Origin: Methanotrichaceae archaeon
GTDB lineage: Archaea > Halobacteriota > Methanosarcinia > Methanotrichales > Methanotrichaceae
Assembly: GCA_963803145.1 (NCBI GenBank)
Contig: CAWDLW010000027.1
Coordinates: 83,786-147,785 of the forward strand
Direction: 5' to 3'
Length of the DNA stretch: 64,000 nucleotides
This document shows positions 5,272-13,978 of this stretch, piece by piece; within the stretch, counting starts at the first letter, position 1, and each line of letters opens with the position of its first letter. The translations under genes were made by a program, and so were the position numbers. Below the pieces are notes generated by a model. It searched no databases. It saw only the letters and a list, made by a program, of their open reading frames with translations, and was not told the origin of the DNA.

Positions 5272-7641
5272 ATGGACCGAATGGAAAAGCTCGGAGTATG
5301 GATAGCCAAAAACCCCCTGGTAATAGCAGCTGTGGTTATCCTCATGACTATCGCCTCGGTGAACTTTGCGAGCCAGATAGAGATGCATGGCTTAGACACC
5401 GAGGACTTTGTAAGTACAAATTCTCCGCTTTACGAAGTTTACAATCACCTTTACCTTGAAAACTTCGGCACCCAGTCCATAGCCATCCTGGTCGAGGGCA
5501 ACGACGTGACCAATGAGGACGTCCTCAAGGCCATGTTGCGCCTCACCGACCGTATAAAAACCGAACCAAATGTCGTAGACGCGGTGAGCGTTGCTGACTT
5601 AGCGGCAGATGCCGAGGCAGAGCAAAGCGGCGTTCGCCAGATCCCATCCCAGGATGAGATCGATGCCATCCTGACAGAGGTCAGCCCAAATCAGCTCCAA
5701 AGCATCATGCCCGACAGCAGGCACACCCTGATATCGGTGGTAGAGCCCAGCTATTTGAACGATGCACAGCAGAAGGACGTGCTCACCGAGACCCAGGCTG
5801 CAGTTCAATTTGCCGATTTTCCTCCTGGATACAACATCATAGTCACAGGCTCGCCTGCTCTCACGGTAGCGATCACCAACACCATGAGCAGCAGCCAGGT
5901 AGAGCTTCTGGCTTTATCCGGAATTCTCATGGTAGTGGCTCTCCTCCTGGTTTTCAGACACGTCAAATGGCCGCTGCTTCCCATACCCACAGTCTTTCTC
6001 GGAATTATTTGGACATTTGGAGCCATGGGACTTTTAAAGCTGCCCATTACCTTGATCTCCTTCTCAGCCTTTCCCATCCTCATTGGGATTGGCATAGATT
6101 ACGCCATCCAGTTCCACAATCGCCTCGATGAGGAGTTCGTCAAGGGCACTCCGCCTGTCCAGGCCATGGCCAATACTGTCAACCATGTGGCTATGCCGGT
6201 GTTGATTGCCCTGACGGTGACTGGTGCTGGCTTCATCTCCCTCATCAGCTCCTCTGTGCCCATGGTGCGCCAGTTCGGGATACTATGTTTTATGGGGCTC
6301 ATCATGTGCTACCTCTCTGCCCTCTTTGTGGGTATGACTGTCCTTTACAGGGTGGAAAAAAGTAGAACGGACAAGAGTGGCCTTGATAAAAGGAACTCCG
6401 ATAAGAAGAGCCCTGATAAGAGGAACCAGTCCGAGAAAAAGAATGGCGAAAGCCGTGAAGTTAAAGGGTCTTCGATTGGATTATTCCTGGCCAGGATCGC
6501 CGACTTCAGCATACAGCGGTGGCAGTTGGTCCTTGCTGTAGCTCTGCTCCTGGCCCTGGCAGGCAACTATGCCGACACCAAGGTGCAAGTGGAAACCAAC
6601 ACCAACAACTACATTCCCCAGGATCTGCCGCCCCTTGTCCAGTTCAGACATCTGACGGAGATCTTCGGAGGCACCGACTCTCTGCAGTTCCTAATCCGGG
6701 CTGATGACGTTACAGATCCGTCTCTTCTGAAATGGATGGACGATTTTGGAAACTATATTTCCAGGACCAAGCTTGAGGTTTATGGCGTGGATGATTTGGC
6801 CACTGCAATAGAGCAGGCTAACGGCGGAGAGCTGCCTGACAATAGGACTGCCATCAGGGCCATAATCAACTCCATGTCTGCAACCACCCGGGATAGGTAT
6901 CTCAGCGGCTATACATTGACGGTGATGAACGTAAACCTGGGAAACGCACAGGCTAACCTCGGATCTGAGGGTATCGACCTTATGATAAGGAATTTCGACA
7001 GAGACCTGGCATTCATGCCCCCACCGCCGAGGGTCTCAGTAACGATAACAGGTCAGCTGGTAGTTTTTTCTACAATCATTGGCGCCCTTACAACAGGCAG
7101 AACAGAGACCACGCTTATTGGCCTTGCACTGATTTTCCTCCTCCTCTTCTTGATCTACAGAGGCGACCTCATCAAAGCTCTCCTGCCGGTCCTTCCAATG
7201 CTGGTGGTCATAGGCTGGATAGGCGGGGTCATGTATCTAGCAGGCCTGAAGTACACGCCTCTGACTGCAACCCTTGGTGCATTGATCCTGGGCGTTGGAT
7301 CGGAGTACGCCATACTCATGATGGGACGGTTCTATGAGGAGCTGCCGAAGGAGCACGATCCTCTTAGAGCTCTAAATATCACCGCCAGCCGAATAGGATC
7401 GGCCCTGATCGCATCGGGAATGACGGTGGTCTTCGGCTTTGCCGCCCTTATAACCTCGCCCTTCAGCATCACCAGCAACTTTGGATTAGTGACGGTCATG
7501 GCGGTGCTCTTTGCCCTTCTGACCACCTTCACCGTCTTTGTGGTGCTCATGGTAAACTTGGAGGAAAGGCGCAGCACCTGGGAGAAGGTCAAGCTCAGAC
7601 TTCAAAGAGCCCTCAAGCTCACCAGCCCGGGAGGAGATTAA
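5272..7641 (+). CDS. RND superfamily (MMPL/HAE3) transporter
   Basis: Two-fold repeated topology with GIGIDYAIQFHNR and GVGSEYAILMMGRFYEE signatures and two large extracytoplasmic loops. Confidence 0.92.
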   Translation: MDRMEKLGVWIAKNPLVIAAVVILMTIASVNFASQIEMHGLDTEDFVSTNSPLYEVYNHLYLENFGTQSIAILVEGNDVTNEDVLKAMLRLTDRIKTEPNVVDAVSVADLAADAEAEQSGVRQIPSQDEIDAILTEVSPNQLQSIMPDSRHTLISVVEPSYLNDAQQKDVLTETQAAVQFADFPPGYNIIVTGSPALTVAITNTMSSSQVELLALSGILMVVALLLVFRHVKWPLLPIPTVFLGIIWTFGAMGLLKLPITLISFSAFPILIGIGIDYAIQFHNRLDEEFVKGTPPVQAMANTVNHVAMPVLIALTVTGAGFISLISSSVPMVRQFGILCFMGLIMCYLSALFVGMTVLYRVEKSRTDKSGLDKRNSDKKSPDKRNQSEKKNGESREVKGSSIGLFLARIADFSIQRWQLVLAVALLLALAGNYADTKVQVETNTNNYIPQDLPPLVQFRHLTEIFGGTDSLQFLIRADDVTDPSLLKWMDDFGNYISRTKLEVYGVDDLATAIEQANGGELPDNRTAIRAIINSMSATTRDRYLSGYTLTVMNVNLGNAQANLGSEGIDLMIRNFDRDLAFMPPPPRVSVTITGQLVVFSTIIGALTTGRTETTLIGLALIFLLLFLIYRGDLIKALLPVLPMLVVIGWIGGVMYLAGLKYTPLTATLGALILGVGSEYAILMMGRFYEELPKEHDPLRALNITASRIGSALIASGMTVVFGFAALITSPFSITSNFGLVTVMAVLFALLTTFTVFVVLMVNLEERRSTWEKVKLRLQRALKLTSPGGD

Positions 7642-8823
7642 ATGGTTATCAGAACAAATCCCAGAATGAATCCCAGAACATACCTCAGAATGTTTCCAAG
7701 AATCGATTCCAGAATTGATCTCAGGATGGATATCAGAACAGTTCTTTGTATCTGTTTAACATGTCTTCTCATACCTGCAGCCACAGCCCAGACACTGCCC
7801 ACTACTGCGGCCGAGTCCGCTCAGGCATATAGCACATATATACCGATTACAGGCGGCCAGAACTACTACAACTTCTACGGCGGTCCAGAGATTGATGCCA
7901 GTGTTAGTGGCAACGATATGTTCAATCGAGGGGATACCGTAACTCTTCTGGTGAGCCTTGCCAACTACGGCCGAGTTACCGGGTTTCAGCAGGATAAGAC
8001 GCCCACTACTCCAACTGAGTATGCTCTGGCCAATGCCGAGCAGCAGGAGGAGGGGAAGATCACCAATGCCATAAACATCAAGGCCACACTCATATCCAAT
8101 ACAACCCAGATAGAGGTCCAGTCAGGGGATCAGGTGGTTCAATCTCTGATGGCAGGTCAGACAGCCACAAGCCCCCTCAGGTACACTCTCCAGATAGCCA
8201 ACCACGCCCCGGCAGGGCTGTATCCTCTGACCCTCAGAGTAAGCTACGATTACCAGTCCAATGTGGAGGTCTATGCAGCCAATCTGGCCAACATCCAGGG
8301 CCTTCCCCCGGTTTTCGTCAACGGTCAGTGGTCTTACTTCTACAGTCATGTCGTTAAGAACCTGACAGTGCCAATAGAGGTGAAGAAGGCTGCAGATTTC
8401 CAGGTGGTTTCAAGCGAGGCCAACACTACTGCAGGCGCAACCAACGGCCCTATTGTTGTGACTTATAGAAATATTGGCAATCAGCCCGTTACGGACGCTG
8501 TAGCCAGGCTCAGCTTCTTCACTCCCTTCTCCTCAACGGATGACCAGGCGTATCTCGGCAATATGACGCCTGGAGAAGAAAAAACAGTTCTCTTCAGGGT
8601 AGACGTGGCCTCGGGGACTACGGCCAAAGAGTACGGGGTAAACAGCGAGATCAAATACACAGATATAAGGGGAGCTACCGCCCTGTCTGAGGTCCTGATG
8701 GTGCCCGTAACCGTCAATCCATCAGGTTCTTCCATCCTAATACCTGCGATCATCGTTGTAGTCTTGATCGTCGCCATTGGAGGATATTGGTACTTAAGGA
8801 GACGAAGAGGAAAGAATACGTAA
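7642..8823 (+). CDS. COG1361 S-layer-like membrane-anchored protein
   Basis: Signal peptide, Ig-like repeats (APAGLYPLTLRVSYDY; PFSSTDDQAYLGNMTPGE), C-terminal TM plus RRRRGK. Abuts the RND gene, a usual pairing in methanogens. Confidence 0.85.
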   Translation: MVIRTNPRMNPRTYLRMFPRIDSRIDLRMDIRTVLCICLTCLLIPAATAQTLPTTAAESAQAYSTYIPITGGQNYYNFYGGPEIDASVSGNDMFNRGDTVTLLVSLANYGRVTGFQQDKTPTTPTEYALANAEQQEEGKITNAINIKATLISNTTQIEVQSGDQVVQSLMAGQTATSPLRYTLQIANHAPAGLYPLTLRVSYDYQSNVEVYAANLANIQGLPPVFVNGQWSYFYSHVVKNLTVPIEVKKAADFQVVSSEANTTAGATNGPIVVTYRNIGNQPVTDAVARLSFFTPFSSTDDQAYLGNMTPGEEKTVLFRVDVASGTTAKEYGVNSEIKYTDIRGATALSEVLMVPVTVNPSGSSILIPAIIVVVLIVAIGGYWYLRRRRGKNT

Positions 8824-9021
8824 AAAGTCTCAAAAGATTCGTCTAGCGCATAGCTGTTCAGCCCCATGGGCCTATATTGCCCTTCTTTTCGCTTTTAATT
8901 ACAACACATACTTAACTTTGCATTGTATGTCCGCTCATGACGTGCTGTTAGTAAACTATATTCCTACAACTTTATTATAAATACTGCATAAACCTTTCTA
9001 AAAATTACAAGAGAGGAGAAT

Positions 9022-10221
9022 ATGAGGTACGTAGCGGTATTTTTGGTAGCCATAGCCCTCATTGCACTTTCAAGCAGTGCGTTTGCAGAGGATGCAAAGG
9101 CTACAAATGATAATTGCCCGATTAAACCGACAACCTCCTGTATGCCTACAGGTGCAGATTGCCCGACAAGTAGTGGCTGTCCAACTGGACACCATTGCAC
9201 AACAGATAGCAGTTGTCCAACAGGATCAGGATGTCCGACTGGTTGTGGCTGTACAACAGGATCTGGATGCACTAGCGGTTCGAGCTGTCCAACTGGCTCA
9301 GGCTGCACAACCAACTCTGTCTGTGCGTCATGTAGCGGCTGCATAACCAACAGCGGTTGCCCAACCGGCAGCGGCTGTACGACAGGCTCTGGTTGCCCAA
9401 CAGGAACAGGCTGTATTACCGGCTCTGGCTGTACAACTGGCTCAGGCTGTACAACGGGTAGCGGATGCCCAACAGGTTCTGGATGTGCAACTGGATCAGG
9501 GTGTGCCACTGCCAGCAGATGTACAACTAATTCATTCTGTCCGACTAGCTGTGGCTGCGTGACAGGCTCAGGCTGCCCGACAGGGACAGGCTGTACAACT
9601 GGCACAGGCTGCCCGACTGGAAACCTCTGCACGACCGGCTCAGGCTGTACAACAGGCTGTGACTGCGCCACAGCATCTATTTGTCCAACAGGTAGCGGAT
9701 GCCCAACAGGTGTGGGTTGCTCAACAGGATCAACTTGCCCAACAGGTTCAGGCTGCTCAACCAATACGGTATGCCCTAGCGAAACAACCTGCGTAACCAA
9801 TTCATTCTGTCCGACATGTTCAGGATGCTTAACAACATCCTCTCGTCTGACAGGAGCTACATGTCCAACTGGCTCAGGCTGCACAACCGGCCCCAACTGT
9901 CCAAGCGGCACATCATGCATAACAGGTACGGGCTGTATAACTGGCACAGGCTGCACAACAGGAGCAGGGTGCACCAGCAGCACATCATGCCCGACTGGAA
10001 CGAGCTGCACCACAAATTCAGTCTGTCCATCCTGCAGCGGCTGCATAACCAATGCCAAGTGCCCGACAAGTACGGGCTGCACAACAGGCTCAGGCTGCAC
10101 AACTAACTCGTGCTGTCCAACAAGCAGCGGCTGTGTTACAACCCGTAACTGTCCCACCGGTAGCGGTTGCCCATGCAGTGGATGCAGGTGTCCGACAGGC
10201 TCATCTTCGCCGAAACATTAA
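9022..10221 (+). CDS. Secreted Cys/Thr/Gly/Ser-rich hexapeptide-repeat protein, function unknown
   Basis: GAGGAG RBS, an upstream TATA-like TTTATTATAAATA, signal peptide MRYVAVFLVAIALIALSSSAFA, then 56 C-x-T/S-x-x-x units. Confidence 0.85.
   Translation: MRYVAVFLVAIALIALSSSAFAEDAKATNDNCPIKPTTSCMPTGADCPTSSGCPTGHHCTTDSSCPTGSGCPTGCGCTTGSGCTSGSSCPTGSGCTTNSVCASCSGCITNSGCPTGSGCTTGSGCPTGTGCITGSGCTTGSGCTTGSGCPTGSGCATGSGCATASRCTTNSFCPTSCGCVTGSGCPTGTGCTTGTGCPTGNLCTTGSGCTTGCDCATASICPTGSGCPTGVGCSTGSTCPTGSGCSTNTVCPSETTCVTNSFCPTCSGCLTTSSRLTGATCPTGSGCTTGPNCPSGTSCITGTGCITGTGCTTGAGCTSSTSCPTGTSCTTNSVCPSCSGCITNAKCPTSTGCTTGSGCTTNSCCPTSSGCVTTRNCPTGSGCPCSGCRCPTGSSSPKH
9160..10167 (+). repeat. 18-bp degenerate coding tandem repeat, 56 units (consensus CPTGSG/CTTGSG)
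   Basis: Cys codon every 18 nt, with a single exception (CGT, Arg, in unit 39). Synonymous positions vary. Confidence 0.9.
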
Positions 10222-10450
10222 ATAGCTCTACCGGACCCGCATAGCTGAACCAGCGCTTCATAGTCTAAAGGACGCTTGGTTGATATGCTCTGCATGCATA
10301 CACATGAAGCCACTGGTATGCATGCAGTCGGTTATTTTTCTATTTTTAAGAAGGCTATTTTAGTTATTAATAGGCTGTACTTACTGGAAAATCAATTTTA
10401 TATAGTCTAGCCGCCAGTTAATAGATGTAATTGATTTTAGGAGGAATTGA

Positions 10451-10664
10451 ATGAGCGTAGAAGAAAACCCAAGGTTAATGAAAACGTTAGATGATGCTTG
10501 GAATGCAGGACCTGAAGGGCCCTGATGGGAAAATGATTCCTCCAACAAACAAGAAATTCCATATCGAGTTCTGTACGGTAGCTACATGGAAGGATGGCCA
10601 GATTGTCGAGGAAAAGCTGTTCTACGATTTGTTGGGAATGCTGAGGCAAATTGGCGTGATGTAA
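10451..10664 (+). pseudogene. SnoaL-like ester cyclase pseudogene with internal deletion and frameshift
   Basis: GGAGG RBS, then MSVEENPRLMKTLDDAWNAGPEGP*. A second frame gives KGPDGKMIPPTNKKFHIEFCTVATWKDGQIVEEKLFYDLLGMLRQIGVM*. These are the two termini of a SnoaL-type protein with the middle missing. Confidence 0.75.
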
Positions 10665-10694: not shown

Positions 10695-12254
10695 CCTTAA
10701 CTCCGCGAATATGGGGAATAAATTGGGCTTTTAAGTGGTTATTTCGGCTCTAGATTCTTATTTGAGCGAAAGCTTAATTAACCTTTATTCCCCATATGGT
10801 GAATATGGAGACTTGGGCTAAAGAGTGGTTAGAGGATCAAAGAAAGAAAGGAGTTAAATGCCTTGAAATAAAACAGCATGGCGCTAAGCATTATGTTTAC
10901 CATTCCACGACACATTGGGATAAAACTCAAAATAAAGCGATAAAGACCTCAAAATATATTGGTAAACTTGATCAAGAGCGCGGTTTAATAAGGTCCCATG
11001 AAGAAGATAGCCAAAATGTAAAGGTTGAAAAGTCAACAAAGGTTAGAAGCATTACCGAGTACGGCAATGCCCTTTTGCTTCACGAAGCCATGAAAGACAT
11101 AAAACCGCTATTGATGGAAGGTTTTCCTAACAATTGGTCGGAAATTTATTCGCTTTCTATGTTGAGAGTTATGGGAAATGTCCCTTTAAAAAGAGCTGAA
11201 AGCGCATGGCAAAAGCTCTATAATGTGGAATCCATTGAACCTAATCTCAAGTCTCAACATCTCTCTAAAGTAATGCAAGATATTGGCGGCAACCGCAAAG
11301 GTCAGAGCATATTATTTAAGGGCCTTCTCGATCAAAGTGAACAGCTTGTATACGATTTAAGTTATATATTTTCGCGTTCTGTAAGCATACGTCAAGCAGA
11401 AAAGGGCTATAATAAAGATAAAATTCAATTACCTCAAATTAACATAGTGCTACTTTGTAACGCTGAAACTGGGCTGCCAACTATGATAAGATCCCTTCCA
11501 GGCAGTGTCAAAGACATAGCAACCCTGAGAAAATCCCTTTCTGAATTTGATATCCAAAACAAGATGCTCATATTGGATAGAGGTTTCTCCTCAGAAGATG
11601 TCTTTTCGGATTTAAATGAACTTGATATCTCATACCTTATTCCGGCGAAAAGAAATAGCCATTATTATGATACGCGCATTCACCTAAATAGTCACTTTCG
11701 CTACCGTAAGCGGCTAATTCGATGTGGTAGCAGAATGTGCAAAGACAAGTATCTCTATCTATTTGAAGATCAAGAACTCTTGCTTGAAGAGCGTAATACC
11801 CTTTACGATAAACTTGATAAAGGTGAGATTGATAGAAATCACTTTGATAAAAATTTTAAAAAAGCTGGAAGGATTTTAATTCTGTCAAATCGAAAGATGT
11901 CTGAGCAGGAAGCTTATGAATTCTACAAGAAAAGGGACGTTGTCGAGAAATTATTCGATACCTATAAATCAACTTTGTATGCAGATAGATTATACCTACA
12001 TAACGATGAAAGCGTTTTCGGACATGTATTTATTGGATTTTTATCTCTCTACGCATATTGTAAAATCGAATCTCTATTAAAGAAAGCCAATCTAAATAGA
12101 ACTATGATACCAATGGATTTACTATTTGAGTTTAGCAAAATATATCATATCGACTTTGGTGAAGAGGACGCTATTATGGAAATTCCTAAGAAAGTTCGTG
12201 ATCTAGATGTAAGGCTTAAACTAAATCTATTCCCCACGTAATGCGGAGTTAAGG
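10695..12254 (+). mobile_element. IS1634-family insertion sequence
   Basis: Terminal inverted repeats CCTTAACTCCGC...TGGGGAATA and TATTCCCCA...GCGGAGTTAAGG. 6-bp target duplication TTTGAA at 10689-10694 and 12255-12260. Confidence 0.9.
10796..12241 (+). CDS. IS1634-family DDE transposase
   Basis: YDLS, GYNKDK..LPQIN, PGSVKDI, ILDRGF and YKKRDVVEKLF motifs. Confidence 0.9.
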   Translation: MVNMETWAKEWLEDQRKKGVKCLEIKQHGAKHYVYHSTTHWDKTQNKAIKTSKYIGKLDQERGLIRSHEEDSQNVKVEKSTKVRSITEYGNALLLHEAMKDIKPLLMEGFPNNWSEIYSLSMLRVMGNVPLKRAESAWQKLYNVESIEPNLKSQHLSKVMQDIGGNRKGQSILFKGLLDQSEQLVYDLSYIFSRSVSIRQAEKGYNKDKIQLPQINIVLLCNAETGLPTMIRSLPGSVKDIATLRKSLSEFDIQNKMLILDRGFSSEDVFSDLNELDISYLIPAKRNSHYYDTRIHLNSHFRYRKRLIRCGSRMCKDKYLYLFEDQELLLEERNTLYDKLDKGEIDRNHFDKNFKKAGRILILSNRKMSEQEAYEFYKKRDVVEKLFDTYKSTLYADRLYLHNDESVFGHVFIGFLSLYAYCKIESLLKKANLNRTMIPMDLLFEFSKIYHIDFGEEDAIMEIPKKVRDLDVRLKLNLFPT

Positions 12255-12352: not shown

Positions 12353-13978
12353 CTAGGTGGGCTCCGTGGAGTTAAAAATCTCAATCCTACCTTCCTCCTT
12401 TGGAGCCACAGGGCTATTTTTCTTGATATAGGCTGCCAGAGGGTCAACGTCGTTCACAGTGGTATCATACTTTCTCTCTGCCAGCATCTCAGCGAAGAGA
12501 TAGAAGCCATCTCCACCCGCGGCAGTAAAGCTTGGAACCACAGCCTCGTACCTCTTTAGCACATCGAGCGGCTCCCATGTGCCGTTCCTCTGCACAAAGA
12601 TCCCCGATACTCTTCTGCCTGGACTTATCATCTTTTTTAGCTTCCGTCCGTCGTAAGTGGCAGCAAAAGGCTCTGCGTTTCTATCAATCTTGAATTTGAT
12701 TCCGGCCACCTGCAGAAAACCACCCTCCTGGACCCCTGTAACCTCTGGATCAAGTGCTGCAGCGCTCACCTCTAGCATCTTCTTGATATCCTCGCCAGTC
12801 ATATTGATTAGAACGAGAGTGTTGCCGAATGGGAGGATGGCCTTAATGGTCTGGTATGAGATGGGTCCCTTAGGATAAATCCTGTCTCCACGTATTCCTC
12901 CTCCATTGGTTACAGCAATATCGGCCTTTGGGAACCAGGCAAGAGAGGCATCCGATATGAGGTTACCGAGCGGCATTTCTTGGCTTCGCACTAACTTACT
13001 TCTGGCATCCAGATCCACTGCAGTAGATCCTATCTCCTGAGATAGCTTTTTCTGGTAATCCTCAACAAAGGGTGCAAGATAGTCCCGGATGGCTGGATTA
13101 TAGCCGATGCTTTCGTTAAGGGGCACTGCTTGCCAGTGAGGACTCTCGATTCCTCTTCCTGTATAGGTGAAGCTCAAAACGCCCACGCGCACGGCGTTCA
13201 TACCATCCTGGACAATCAGCGTCCGCCAGCTATCGGGGCCATTTATGGAGGTATTAACGTAGGTATGATCATGTCCTCCCACAATCAGATCGATGCCAGA
13301 AACATTTCTCGCCAGATCTTCATCCTGGGCAGATCCCATATGGGAGATAGCTATGATTAGATCAGCACCCTGGCTTCTCAAAGTTTTGACCTGCTCTGAT
13401 GCTACAACCTCAACATCAGTTTTAACAGAGATGCCCCCTCCAGTATTGGCAAGCCTGTCAAGATCAGGGGTCATCAACCCGAAGAGGCCGATTTTAACAC
13501 CTGAGATATTTAGTAAGATCGAGGGTTTGATGGCTGACTTAAGCTCCGGATCCTTGACCTCAAGGTTGGCACAAAGAATAGGGAAGCCGACATGCTTAGT
13601 CGCATTCAAGTAAACAGGCCAGCCCATATCGAACTTGTGGTTGCCAGGACAGGCTGCATCGTAGCCAGCCATAGTCATGGCCTTCATCTCCGGCTCGCCC
13701 TGGAAGAATTCATAGAATGCCCCCATCAGGTCATCACCCGATGAGAGGAGCAATGATCCATCTGTGCTTGCTCTCACGCTTTTGGCAAAGGCGCTGATCC
13801 TTTCCAGACCGCCTTGCGATGGTCCTCCAGGGGTAGCGTTGAAGGGCACAACCCGGCTTTGCAAATCTGATGTAGTCATGACAGCCAGCTTTAGAGGAAC
13901 ATTGGCGGCATGGTCCATAGCAGGGCTTGGTGCTATCATAATGATACAAGCAATAATCCAAAAGAGACTGTTCTTCAT
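12353..13978 (-). CDS. Secreted bifunctional metallophosphatase / 5'-nucleotidase (UshA-like)
   Basis: Signal peptide, TSDLQS, SGDD, PGNHKFD, GGHDHT and NGGGIRG motifs, and a C-terminal 5'-nucleotidase domain. Confidence 0.9.
   Translation of the reverse strand: MKNSLFWIIACIIMIAPSPAMDHAANVPLKLAVMTTSDLQSRVVPFNATPGGPSQGGLERISAFAKSVRASTDGSLLLSSGDDLMGAFYEFFQGEPEMKAMTMAGYDAACPGNHKFDMGWPVYLNATKHVGFPILCANLEVKDPELKSAIKPSILLNISGVKIGLFGLMTPDLDRLANTGGGISVKTDVEVVASEQVKTLRSQGADLIIAISHMGSAQDEDLARNVSGIDLIVGGHDHTYVNTSINGPDSWRTLIVQDGMNAVRVGVLSFTYTGRGIESPHWQAVPLNESIGYNPAIRDYLAPFVEDYQKKLSQEIGSTAVDLDARSKLVRSQEMPLGNLISDASLAWFPKADIAVTNGGGIRGDRIYPKGPISYQTIKAILPFGNTLVLINMTGEDIKKMLEVSAAALDPEVTGVQEGGFLQVAGIKFKIDRNAEPFAATYDGRKLKKMISPGRRVSGIFVQRNGTWEPLDVLKRYEAVVPSFTAAGGDGFYLFAEMLAERKYDTTVNDVDPLAAYIKKNSPVAPKEEGRIEIFNSTEPT

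Follow-up and report, generated by a model that had tools for sequence, protein, structure and literature searches.

An undescribed family of exported cysteine-hexad proteins in Methanotrichaceae and its possible beta-solenoid fold

Introduction

An open reading frame in the genome of a Methanotrichaceae archaeon (9022..10221 on the plus strand of the window, i.e., the whole 64,000-nucleotide stretch of DNA that was analysed) runs from ATG to TAA, stop codon included, and translates into a 399-aa protein in which cysteine recurs every six residues. The locus raises the question of whether so regular a sequence is a gene, how its product might fold and what role it might have at the cell. The initial annotation had read it as a secreted protein forming a long beta-solenoid and had named ice binding, a metal-thiolate polymer and sheath cross-linking as candidate roles. 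Little is known of the surface of acetate-using methanogens of the Methanothrix group besides the sheath, and the Cys-hexad family adds a candidate component to it. New here are this undescribed family of exported proteins and a dedicated three-gene membrane module.

Results

The hexads keep one register

Residues 47-382 (9160..10167, plus strand) form 56 hexads with zero indels. The first position is Cys in 55 of the 56, the exception being an Arg (codon CGT) in hexad 39, and the third is occupied by Thr (50) or Ser (6) throughout. Pro (23) and Thr (17) lead at position 2, and Gly (34), Ser (34) and Gly (33) at positions 4, 5 and 6, so that the consensus reads C-P/T-T-G-S-G, with the hexads arranged in 12-residue pairs. 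When the residues of the repeat region were shuffled 20,000 times, the best Cys register averaged 14.1 and reached 23 at most, compared with the 55 observed. The whole protein contains 68 Cys (17% of residues), 88 Thr, 70 Gly, 61 Ser and 30 Pro, with only three His and two aromatic residues; N-x-S/T sequons are absent, i.e., it has no N-glycosylation sites. Cysteines are mostly spaced as C-x5-C, with a minority as C-x-C (5), C-C (1) and C-x-x-C (7). Five copies of a longer sub-block, C-[TV]-T-N-S-x / C-x5 / C-[IVL]-T, begin at residues 95, 167, 257, 329 and 359. The description in the initial annotation of an indel-free, in-register array behind a signal peptide, with a recurring higher-order sub-block, was reproduced by these counts.

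The underlying DNA is considerably less uniform than the peptide. Among 47 pairs of hexads with the same peptide, mean nucleotide identity was 75%, and one pair was identical in DNA; Cys is encoded by TGT 32 times and by TGC 36 times, and the 18- and 36-nt arrays reported by Tandem Repeats Finder match at just 67-82%. This divergence, together with the substitution bias described below, agrees with the earlier proposal that the pattern is conserved at the protein level.

The plus strand encodes a selected, exported protein

A 397-aa antisense ORF (8964-10157, minus strand) overlaps the Cys-hexad gene, and on a Gemmatimonadales contig DNA of the same periodicity indeed codes, on its opposite strand, for a P-Q-P-V-A-Q linker. 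Both observations favour a reading in which there is no real gene here, either because the Val/Gln/Pro-rich antisense ORF is the true product or because the DNA is non-coding and of low complexity. Comparison with an orthologue (83% identical; 337 aligned codons) argues strongly against it. Differences fall 37, 27 and 129 times on codon positions 1, 2 and 3 of the plus frame, indicating that this frame is under purifying selection, and the codon changes comprise 106 synonymous and 58 non-synonymous ones. In addition, the plus frame opens with a signal peptide, the globular C-terminal domains of paralogues share a reading frame with the Cys hexads, the promoter-like and ribosome-binding-like flank is conserved, and the family is kept across nine genomes and 11 metagenome loci. 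We consider it extremely unlikely that no gene is present; the antisense ORF is a mirror artefact. The orthologue alignment contains 55 Cys-Cys columns against two of Cys versus another residue, and its internal indels measure 48, 12 and 6 residues, so that the 6-residue Cys register is preserved in the homologue, as the initial annotation had expected.

The first 22 residues (9022..9087, plus strand) read as a signal peptide: a basic start and a hydrophobic stretch lead to A-F-A, followed by E-D, between which cleavage would occur. Residues 2-23 form a confident helix (pLDDT 87-93) in the AlphaFold2 model built with the family alignment, and the N-terminus is conserved in the paralogues and the orthologue. 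The mature protein would have 377 aa and about 35 kDa, with charged and aromatic residues almost absent. Its C-terminal tail (residues 383-399; 10168..10218, plus strand) carries a 4-Cys cluster and is without a membrane anchor or sorting signal; such tails vary among paralogues. From its sequence, we read the product as a Sec-exported, non-enzymatic repeat protein, and the earlier call of a real gene with a secreted product is supported.

The flanks were compared in a three-way DNA alignment of the window copy, a paralogue on contig C20 of its own genome and a same-genus orthologue. The ~150 nt 5' of the ATG (8870..9021, plus strand) are largely invariant, and farther upstream the window copy diverges. 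Inside the invariant block lies a TATA-box-like element, TTTATTATAAAT (8971..8982, plus strand), ~40-50 nt 5' of the start codon, which is probably an archaeal promoter element. A purine-rich, ribosome-binding-like stretch with GAGG (9010..9019, plus strand) lies directly 5' of the ATG and is invariant in all three copies. On the 3' side, a 12-bp inverted repeat hairpin followed by two T-runs (10290..10347, plus strand) may serve as a terminator; folding of the RNA from 10280-10350 gave -21.7 kcal/mol (z -3.2 vs 200 shuffles), and the window copy and the orthologue have the 3' flank up to this element in common.

An IS4 transposase gene adjoins the window copy, which is a detached duplicate lying away from the membrane module described below, with promoter-like and terminator-like flanks of its own. 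A tie to the HAE3 transporter pair upstream in the window was rejected because the orthologue and paralogues sit in other gene contexts.

The family is multigene and patchily distributed

The gene is one of eight paralogues in its genome. Homologues exist among related genomes, and they are sparse: members turned up in 8 of the 105 genomes at the level of Methanotrichaceae, representing 4 of 16 genera, and in only 1 of the 388 further genomes that sampled the phylum, counts in which related genomes are not independent samples. Because this distribution is patchy, the family is an accessory trait rather than a general feature of the group. The 11 metagenome loci were found with a 4-sequence family alignment as the query. 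The locus in the Gemmatimonadales genome (L019) was rejected as a member, as it is really the P-Q-P-V-A-Q linker gene on the opposite strand; besides this false hit, the profile scan of genome contigs gave one true locus.

No named family accounts for the protein, consistent with what had been read from the sequence at first. Zero Pfam families matched the 399-aa protein, even at E up to 1, and no NCBIfam family did, the hits being weak ones only (LpxD, E 0.11). Its exact sequence is absent from a collection of 15 billion proteins, a word-indexed protein search, saturated by low-complexity candidates, gave two hits, the ESM Atlas gave no usable hit, and full-text searches of the literature returned no paper on a protein of this kind.

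Several members join the hexads to other domains. In paralogues, the hexads lie N-terminal to a LolA/LppX-like domain (a sub-threshold match). Elsewhere in the family, one protein combines a membrane anchor, hexads and a NosD beta-helix (P0002), another continues from the hexads into a hydrophobic, Arg-rich C-terminus (P0003), and a third places a Peptidase_C92 domain and a Pro linker before them (L048).

A membrane module accompanies the family

The family shares its nine genomes, with no exception, with a module consisting of a ~270-aa single-pass membrane-anchored partner and two ~700-aa polytopic GldG/GIFT-like membrane proteins. Among the 105 genomes of the taxonomic family, the partner was found in eight, precisely those that carry hexad genes. 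In the phylum sample of 401 genomes, a 9-sequence partner profile matched two, which are also the two matched by the hexad protein. The first GldG-like protein has orthologues (58-100% identity) only in the eight family genomes. In six of nine genomes the partner is immediately preceded by a hexad gene, and in three of nine the second GldG-like gene is immediately followed by one; some of these neighbouring homologues are single-copy and shorter (230-250 aa). At least one hexad gene adjoins the module in seven of nine, and in the other two no hexad gene was present within the flanks examined around it. Surface proteins of the NosD and Lipoprotein_15 type also adjoin other paralogues. The single ectodomain Cys of the partner is invariant in all nine orthologues (52-90% identity), and the conserved cluster is without a transporter ATPase, permease or metallochaperone. 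By co-occurrence and adjacency, the hexad protein, the single-Cys partner and the two GldG/GIFT-like proteins appear as a four-gene unit, which is a concrete target to express, localise and delete.

The repeat has a period of 12 residues and suggests a thin solenoid

We examined how Pro-containing hexads follow one another in 802 family hexads. The probability of Pro given Pro at hexad lags 1-6 was 0.28, 0.61, 0.35, 0.57, 0.37 and 0.57, against a base rate of 0.48; that is, the period is two hexads. A 21-sequence family alignment gave the consensus CPTGxxCxTGxx, and in 256 family 12-mers the first hexad begins with C (100%), P (100%), T (88%) and G (70%) and the second with C (100%), a variable residue (T 29%, A 20%, I 15%, V 14%), T (91%) and G (55%). 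The 36-nt arrays seen by Tandem Repeats Finder agree with this period. The repeating unit is thus 12 residues long (C-P-T-G-x-x-C-x-T-G-x-x), a length that it shares with the coil of the beetle antifreeze beta-helix.

Structure prediction was of low confidence. Mean pLDDT was 36.1 from the single sequence and 42.8 with the 21-sequence family alignment, values that would be equally compatible with disorder. In the family-alignment model, the only non-helical secondary structure consists of seven beta-bridges at residues 121, 133 ... 193, which recur every 12 residues in the stretch that scores best (pLDDT 51-59). Foldseek found zero matches to this model in the PDB, and VIA-align against 48,161 chains found none at Z 5 or above, the best being generic LRR solenoids (Z 3.6); the beetle antifreeze protein 1EZG scored Z 2.3 (rmsd 4.0 over 77 residues), and all of these scores are within noise. 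At the sequence level, the family profile ranked 1EZG first in the PDB and kept the Cys in register over the full 81 residues, at a non-significant E of 0.62 (12 bits, high bias), and a PDB search with the single sequence found no AFP. A collagen-like reading was rejected, since it was P-T-G triplets that produced the match to BclA (E 1.3) and glycine does not occupy every third residue.

The long beta-solenoid with a Cys ladder put forward in the initial annotation was therefore upheld in part: the 12-residue superperiod, the 1EZG match and the 12-residue spacing of the bridges favour it, and the low pLDDT and the outcome of the structure searches speak against it. A beta-solenoid with an internal Cys ladder nevertheless appears to be the most economical fold for such a sequence and model. 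We assign a probability of roughly 40% to our main reading, in which the protein is a thin, cysteine-braced beta-solenoid rod of an accessory cell-surface structure. The rod would be very thin, with one turn per 12 residues; two Cys per turn would face each other in the core, Gly would occupy the other inward positions and Thr would line the outside. About 28 turns would give a length of roughly 13 nm, taking a rise of ~4.7 A per turn. The facing Cys may stabilise each turn by a disulfide, on the model of the beetle beta-helix, or else as stacked thiols. In other family members, the rod would act as the stalk that carries a LolA-like, a NosD-type or a papain-like amidase domain. The membrane module would receive the rods and hold them at the cell surface, forming an accessory envelope structure, with tethering possibly through a disulfide to the lone ectodomain Cys of the partner.

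A left-handed hexapeptide helix fits less well

The period of the repeat also bears on another solenoid, the Hexapep-type left-handed triangular helix, in which three hexads (18 residues) would make a turn, with Thr replacing Leu/Ile/Val and Cys at the small inward position. The strongest hits in a library of 1.84 billion proteins were indeed C-x-L-G-D/N-x repeat proteins (E 4e-15 to 1e-10), and among 14 library hits scanned, four (P0004, P0006, P0007 and P0009) exceed the Pfam Hexapep cut-off (E 2e-11 to 2e-29). The hexapeptide rule is [LIV]-G-x-x-[STAV]-x, an aliphatic inward residue followed by Gly, onto which T-G-x-x-C-x can be fitted, and hexapeptide transferases are among the weak hits in the PDB (4n27, E 0.11) and, as LpxD, in NCBIfam. 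However, the 399-aa protein itself matches no Pfam Hexapep model at E up to 1, and the only residues in which it agrees with the Hexapep hits are the Cys and a single Gly in every hexad. The would-be aliphatic position, before the conserved Gly, is Thr/Ser in 56 of 56 hexads. The Pro periodicity peaks at lag 2 and not at lag 3 (0.61 vs 0.35, base 0.48), and the bridges in the AlphaFold2 model recur every 12, not every 18, residues. We regard the left-handed helix as unlikely.

The threonine array does not resemble an ice-binding face

A rod built like the beetle protein might bind ice or gas hydrate through a flat array of Thr hydroxyls. The Cys at every sixth residue, the 12-residue unit, the top PDB rank of 1EZG and the 88 Thr among 399 residues are all in favour of this role. 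According to passages of PMC8038014, the beetle repeat is TCTxSxNCxxAx, in which T-C-T is the defining motif and forms the ice-binding Thr ranks; the 12-residue coil has Cys2, Ser5, Cys8 and Ala11 inside and a Cys2-Cys8 disulfide. Mapped onto the Cys-hexad protein, this pattern puts Cys, Gly, Cys and Gly/Ser/Asn inside. The T-C-T motif, however, occurs zero times. Around the Cys of the non-Pro hexad in the 256 12-mers, the preceding residue is Gly in 41% and Thr in 7%, and the following residue is Thr in 29%, indicating at most one interrupted Thr rank. Fusions of the enzyme and lipid-binding type and a membrane module are also ill-suited to a soluble antifreeze, and the 1EZG similarity, as stated above, is not significant. 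The regular, antifreeze-type Thr face suggested at first was thus not borne out, and ice or hydrate binding is disfavoured as a very improbable role.

The cysteines may be oxidised or reduced

We then considered the state of the cysteines. No VKOR, DsbB or DsbA-like (Thioredoxin_4) oxidase was found in the 99%-complete genome, in which the only thiol-redox membrane proteins found were of the DsbD_TM/CcdA type, usually reductive. The organism is a strict anaerobe, and the Cys may therefore stay reduced. Cys totals are odd in several family members (61, 57 and 101), so that not all Cys pair within the chain. Passages of PMC11576556 do describe disulfides outside the cell in sheathed methanogens. 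In the relative G183, a thioredoxin-like gene (a weak DsbH-like match) and CcdA continue the cluster on the same strand, which fits reduced thiols as well as disulfide shuffling; a recurrent thioredoxin/CcdA neighbourhood was rejected, as it is present in one of nine clusters only. Genes for Cys-Thr cross-linking of the RiPP/lanthionine type lay beside none of the copies inspected, and a search of the genome for the LanC-like family gave no match but is uninformative, since its control gave none either.

These data bear on the main rival to the solenoid rod, metal or sulfur binding by an extracellular poly-thiol that is floppy or folded by its ligand. In such a protein, ~60 regularly spaced thiols would bind thiophilic metals (Ni, Co, Fe, Zn, Cu) or sulfane sulfur in the sulfidic surroundings of a methanogen with a high demand for metals; in short paralogues, His residues of C-N-A-P-T-G-H hexads would add to the thiols, and the module would hold or unload the protein. 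The high and strictly arrayed Cys content, the low AlphaFold2 confidence, the DsbD_TM/CcdA proteins found in place of an oxidising Dsb/VKOR system and the genes that continue the G183 cluster agree with this role, as do the His- and Cys-containing hexads at both ends of short paralogues and relatives. On the other hand, the invariant Thr/Ser, the Gly, the alternating Pro and the register-keeping indels point to a fold defined by the backbone and not by a ligand. Classical metal-thiolate spacings are few, the 399-aa protein has merely three His, the conserved cluster offers neither transporter nor metallochaperone genes, and eight of the nine clusters are without thioredoxin/CcdA neighbours. 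We therefore consider a poly-thiol binder rather unlikely, while ranking it first among the alternatives. If the thiols were free, the protein would be a candidate extracellular metal or sulfur binder in a metal-limited, sulfidic habitat.

In a further reading, the Cys ladder could be a continuous row of thiolates in place of disulfides, ~two per 4.7-A turn over ~13 nm, templating a metal-thiolate chain of Fe, Ni, Co or Cu outside the cell and docked to the membrane by the single-Cys anchor and the GldG-like pair. We consider this reading improbable; if true, a cytochrome-free methanogen would possess a novel type of metal store or electron-conducting wire outside its cell. The electron conduit as such, a thiol/disulfide relay or metal-thiolate chain running along the ladder of a methanogen without multihaem cytochromes, is in our view highly doubtful. 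A solenoid would place stacked Cys about 4.7-5 A apart, the genome encodes DsbD_TM/CcdA membrane electron carriers, a CcdA gene adjoins the cluster in G183, and Methanothrix is without surface multihaem cytochromes, its electron-uptake route still being called speculative (passages of PMC10470525). Yet the protein has almost no aromatic residues, and the papers on electron uptake that were searched mention no such cysteine/thiol protein. Moreover, it cannot be a general electron route, because the family is present in just 8 of 105 genomes.

Discussion

The Cys-hexad proteins are an undescribed, selected, lineage-restricted multigene family of exported proteins. With respect to their place in the envelope, the cross-linking of sheath or matrix suggested in the initial annotation lost ground: a core sheath or cross-linker role is disfavoured and unlikely, because the family occurs in so few genomes of a group whose studied members are sheathed. 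Passages of PMC11576556 state that what the plugs and the sheath accessories consist of is not yet settled.

If the proposed fold is true, archaea would have arrived independently at the thinnest beta-solenoid known and lengthened it to about 28 turns; such a rigid, nanometre-thin rod would be of interest to structural biologists and protein designers.

The sheath (SH / MspA) proteins, which passages of PMC11576556 describe across sheathed Methanotrichales with an amyloid-like two-sheet core, differ from the Cys-hexad family in distribution, the latter being patchy (8/105 genomes, 4/16 genera). Among metal-thiolate proteins, the metallothioneins offer the obvious comparison. They are cytosolic, under about 10 kDa and about 30% Cys, in C-x-C, C-C and C-x-x-C clusters; the Cys-hexad protein, in contrast, has a signal peptide, would be 35 kDa when mature and contains 17% Cys, mostly as C-x5-C.

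The Cys-containing Hexapep (PF00132) metagenome proteins have in common with it long, gap-free arrays of hexads with one Cys and one Gly each. However, their hexad, C-x-[LIF]-G-[DN]-x, has an aliphatic core residue where the Cys-hexad protein has Thr/Ser, their turn has 18 residues in place of a period of 12, and most of those inspected are without a signal peptide. The LRR solenoid of Listeria InlJ (3bz5), a weak structural match to the AlphaFold2 model (Z 3.3, within noise), has Cys at one inward position of every repeat, and stacked Cys can thus line a core; the ladder Cys of InlJ is reduced. Unlike the Cys-hexad protein, InlJ is a bacterial adhesin with a ~21-22-residue repeat, a hydrophobic Leu core and one Cys per turn.

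The hyperactive beetle antifreeze proteins (Tenebrio molitor TmAFP, 1EZG, and its Dendroides and Dorcus homologues) are also among the closest known systems. Like the Cys-hexad protein, they are secreted, with Cys every six residues in a 12-residue unit, and are small/polar and rich in Thr/Ser/Gly without a hydrophobic core; their pattern of inward and outward residues maps onto C-x-x-G-x-x. The sequences are nevertheless not significantly similar (1EZG, E 0.62), and the fold and disulfides, which in the beetles are a right-handed beta-helix with one disulfide inside each coil, are only proposed here. The T-C-T motif is missing from all 399 residues, and Gly stands at the inward positions where the beetles have Ser and Ala. 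The archaeal proteins would extend to 28 putative turns, compared with 6-11 in beetles, and they form a multigene family that includes domain fusions and is tied to a membrane module.

The Cys-hexad array and its coding strand

The gene at 9022–10221 (+) is an ATG-to-stop open reading frame encoding a 399-aa protein (the window protein), whose residues 1–22 resemble a signal peptide ending in A-F-A before E-D. Residues 47–382 consist of 56 hexads (C-x-T-x-x-x units) with no insertions or deletions. Cys occupies position 1 in 55 hexads; hexad 39 alone has Arg there, encoded by CGT. Thr (50) and Ser (6) account for every position 3, position 2 is most often Pro (23) or Thr (17), and Gly, Ser and Gly predominate at positions 4, 5 and 6, respectively (34, 34 and 33 of 56). 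Total Cys content was 68. When the repeat region was shuffled 20,000 times, no register contained more than 23 Cys; the 55 observed are far beyond chance. Hexads encoding the same peptide showed a mean nucleotide identity of 75%, only 1 of 47 pairs was identical in DNA, and Tandem Repeats Finder reported arrays matching at just 67–82%; therefore, the array does not derive from recent DNA slippage. A higher-order sub-block occurs in five copies, at residues 95, 167, 257, 329 and 359. Our recount agrees with the initial annotation on the hexads, the Cys content, conservation at the protein level and the recurring sub-block.

An antisense open frame of 397 aa at 8964–10157 (−), composed of V-V-Q-P-E-P-type hexads, mirrors the Cys-hexad gene; we rejected it as a true gene and regard it as a mirror artefact of codon periodicity. 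Over 337 codons aligned to the 83%-identical orthologue from another genome of the genus, plus-frame differences at codon positions 1, 2 and 3 numbered 37, 27 and 129, with 106 synonymous and 58 non-synonymous changes. In several paralogues, a globular C-terminal domain continues in the Cys frame. Approximately 150 nt 5' of the ATG are conserved across three copies, including a TATA-like box at 8971–8982 (+) and, immediately ahead of the ATG, a stretch that contains GAGG (+). A 3' flank of approximately 130 nt, common to the window copy and the same-genus orthologue, ends in a stable hairpin (−21.7 kcal/mol, z −3.2) and T-runs. Codon-position bias, in-frame paralogue domains and conserved flanks thus indicate that the plus strand is coding. 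Gene callers could choose the wrong strand in this family. A candidate relative on a Gemmatimonadales contig was false, as its P-Q-P-V-A-Q linker is coded on the opposite strand; the real product there (L019, 5685–7535 (−)) is a 616-aa secreted protein with a long linker of this type, whose antisense frame mimics Cys hexads.

The initial annotation had staked its proposal on homologues that conserve the six-residue Cys register. The same-genus orthologue conserves it, with Cys retained in 55 alignment columns and replaced in 2; its internal indels are 48, 12 and 6 residues long, and hence the register survives.

An undescribed family with varied architectures

No Pfam family matched the window protein at E up to 1, NCBIfam returned two rows, both non-significant, and a PDB sequence search returned a single row (E 0.11). 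ESM Atlas gave no match, and the exact sequence was absent from a 15-billion-protein collection. HMMER, run exhaustively over 1.84 billion representatives, detected 183 proteins at E ≤1e-3, 13 at ≤1e-10 and none at ≤1e-30. Of 152 proteins inspected, 149 came from the HMMER run; 96 had 8 or more hexads within C-x5 runs, and nearly all of these 96 carry a different hexad, C-x-L-G-D/N-x. Hexapep scored above the cut-off in 4 of the 14 proteins scanned with Pfam, and these 4 have only Cys and one Gly per hexad in common with the window protein. Full-text literature searches found no paper describing such a protein. That no named family was recognised initially is therefore borne out; the exported Cys-hexad family is real and undescribed.

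The window organism's genome holds eight copies of three types: pure hexad proteins resembling the window protein; long proteins (705 and 972 aa) with 53–75 hexads followed by a domain of approximately 250 aa, with sub-threshold matches to LppX/LolA-like and DUF6612 families; and short proteins of approximately 250–320 aa, whose terminal Tyr-/His-rich hexads lack some Cys and keep P-T-G. Members were detected in 8 of the 105 genomes from the taxonomic family (4 of 16 genera) and in none of 16 genomes of two sister families; in a phylum-wide sample they occurred in 2 of 401 genomes, the window organism's own and one from another family (G183). Further members were found at 11 metagenome loci. 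One incomplete member (L039, 2–3406 (+)) has at least 1135 aa, at least 102 in-register hexads and 139 Cys, its hexads forming higher-order repeats of roughly 100 residues ahead of a LolA-like C-terminal domain. Another carries a Peptidase_C92 amidase domain and a Pro linker ahead of the hexads, and the library protein P0002 combines a membrane anchor, hexads and a NosD-type beta-helix. From these architectures, the array is therefore a unit that makes up some exported proteins by itself and serves as an extended connector in others.

Co-inheritance with a membrane module

The window copy, which has its 5' and 3' flanks in common with the same-genus orthologue, is a detached duplicate. On one side it has an HAE3 transporter pair unrelated to it and on the other an IS4-type transposase; its immediate neighbours are therefore uninformative on function. 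The HAE3-family RND transporter (5272–7641 (+); TIGR00921, E 1e-187) is directly followed by a 393-aa secreted protein with an NPCBM_assoc-type domain and a C-terminal membrane helix (7642–8823 (+)), and the two resemble an operon pair with no link to the Cys-hexad gene. The region downstream looks rearranged: the IS4-type DDE transposase gene (10796–12241 (+)) begins 575 nt past the Cys-hexad gene, with a short ORF-like stretch containing an apparent internal stop between them (10452–10664). An ordinary secreted 5'-nucleotidase/metallophosphoesterase (PF02872, PF00149) is encoded at 12353–13978 (−).

In a genome of the same genus and on another contig of the window's own genome (C20), we found a same-strand order of hexad gene, partner, two ~700-aa proteins and second hexad gene. 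The partner has approximately 270 aa, a signal peptide, a beta-rich outside domain and a C-terminal membrane helix; as a lead only, its Atlas model resembles DUF2207-type beta-sandwich domains. The two ~700-aa polytopic proteins match ABC_transp_aux/GldG, IFT52-GIFT and DUF4350. G183 shows the identical gene order, with a partner 56% identical. The partner was found in exactly those 8 of 105 genomes that hold the hexad family, and its profile matched the same 2 of 401 genomes in the phylum sample. Orthologues of the first GldG-like protein (58–100% identity) occur in the same 8 genomes; matches in 15 others were weak (27–45% identity) and lay mostly in longer open frames. In 6 of 9 genomes the gene just upstream of the partner encodes a hexad protein, one of these genes being truncated by a contig end; in 3 of 9 a hexad gene directly follows the second GldG-like gene. 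At least one copy adjoins the module in 7 of 9, counts whose independence is overstated because the genomes are related. In the three genomes with a single hexad gene, that gene adjoins the module; one of these genes is split across two contigs. The association spans five genera and two families. In the minority of Methanotrichaceae-level genomes that carry it, the hexad family is thus linked to a three-gene membrane module; this co-inheritance is the main new result and makes the finding larger than first read.

Secreted proteins of approximately 270–290 aa with no Pfam match are encoded first or early after the module in five genomes (C20 141779–144033 (−); L071 6312–7181; L072 507–1379; L074 3532–4344; L075 6222–7025) and may represent a further recurring component. 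They have 5–6 Cys in the four relatives and 1 on C20, where the gene follows the second hexad gene.

Possible states of the hexad cysteines

VKOR, DsbB and Thioredoxin_4 (DsbA-like) had no match in the window's own genome (99% complete, 6.8% contamination), which encodes DsbD_TM/CcdA-type proteins at four loci and thioredoxin-fold genes. Portions of PMC11576556 describe methanogen sheath hoops joined by disulfides and Dsb-type proteins in Methanotrichales. In G183 (L058, contig C57, 1849–4463 (−)), the module is followed by genes for a thioredoxin-like protein (weak DsbH-like match), DsbD_TM/CcdA, an archaeosortase-B-like protein (below cut-off) and a small membrane protein, after which a CARDB/Ig-type surface protein is encoded. 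This extension, not seen in the other 8 clusters, is possibly a thiol-redox and sorting addition in this genome only. All 9 orthologues of the partner retain its sole outside Cys. The hexad Cys could brace the array through disulfides, tether it to that lone Cys, or be free or metal-bound thiols; the last would suit the main rival reading, an extracellular poly-thiol binder of metals or sulfur, which we consider rather unlikely. Of the sheath and electron-transfer roles raised initially, a core part in the sheath and a general route of electron uptake are disfavoured.

A 12-residue unit and comparison with beetle antifreeze proteins

Successive Pro-hexads in the window protein are separated by 22 gaps, half of which (11) span two hexads. 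Among 802 family hexads, the probability of Pro given Pro at lags 1–6 was 0.28, 0.61, 0.35, 0.57, 0.37 and 0.57 (base rate 0.48), and the family consensus is C-P-T-G-x-x-C-x-T-G-x-x, position 8 being Thr, Ala, Ile or Val in 256 12-mers. This periodicity indicates a structural unit of 12 residues. The same 802 hexads gave no lag-3 Pro signal, which disfavours an 18-residue Hexapep-type turn.

The initial annotation had proposed a long beta-solenoid. AlphaFold2 mean pLDDT was 36.1 from the single sequence and 42.8 with a 21-sequence alignment; in the best stretch of the latter (residues 120–205, pLDDT 51–59), beta-bridges spaced 12 residues apart, the first at 121 and the last at 193, were the sole non-helical secondary structure. 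Foldseek found no match for the model, and VIA-align gave generic solenoids at Z ≤3.6 and 1EZG at Z 2.3. The 12-residue period and, weakly, the modelled bridges favour a beta-solenoid with 12-residue turns, whereas the low pLDDT, the empty Foldseek search and the low Z scores do not; we infer this fold with that qualification. The most likely reading, at a probability of about 0.4, is that the hexad protein would form a Cys-braced, 12-residue-per-turn rod of an accessory surface structure.

The top PDB match of the family profile was the Tenebrio antifreeze protein 1EZG, with Cys aligned throughout (E 0.62). As outlined in part of PMC8038014, this protein is a right-handed helix of 12-residue coils (TCTxSxNCxxAx), with residues 2, 5, 8 and 11 inward and a Cys2–Cys8 disulfide per coil. 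Transferred to the hexad family, this pattern would have Cys, Gly, Cys and Gly/Ser/Asn facing inward, with the invariant Thr on the outer surface. However, T-C-T has 0 copies in the window protein, and in family 12-mers the residue before the Cys of non-Pro hexads is Gly in 41% and Thr in just 7%. We therefore rejected an antifreeze homologue, and the ice-binding role suggested initially is disfavoured. The likeness to beetle antifreeze proteins most plausibly reflects convergence upon a shared minimal scaffold.
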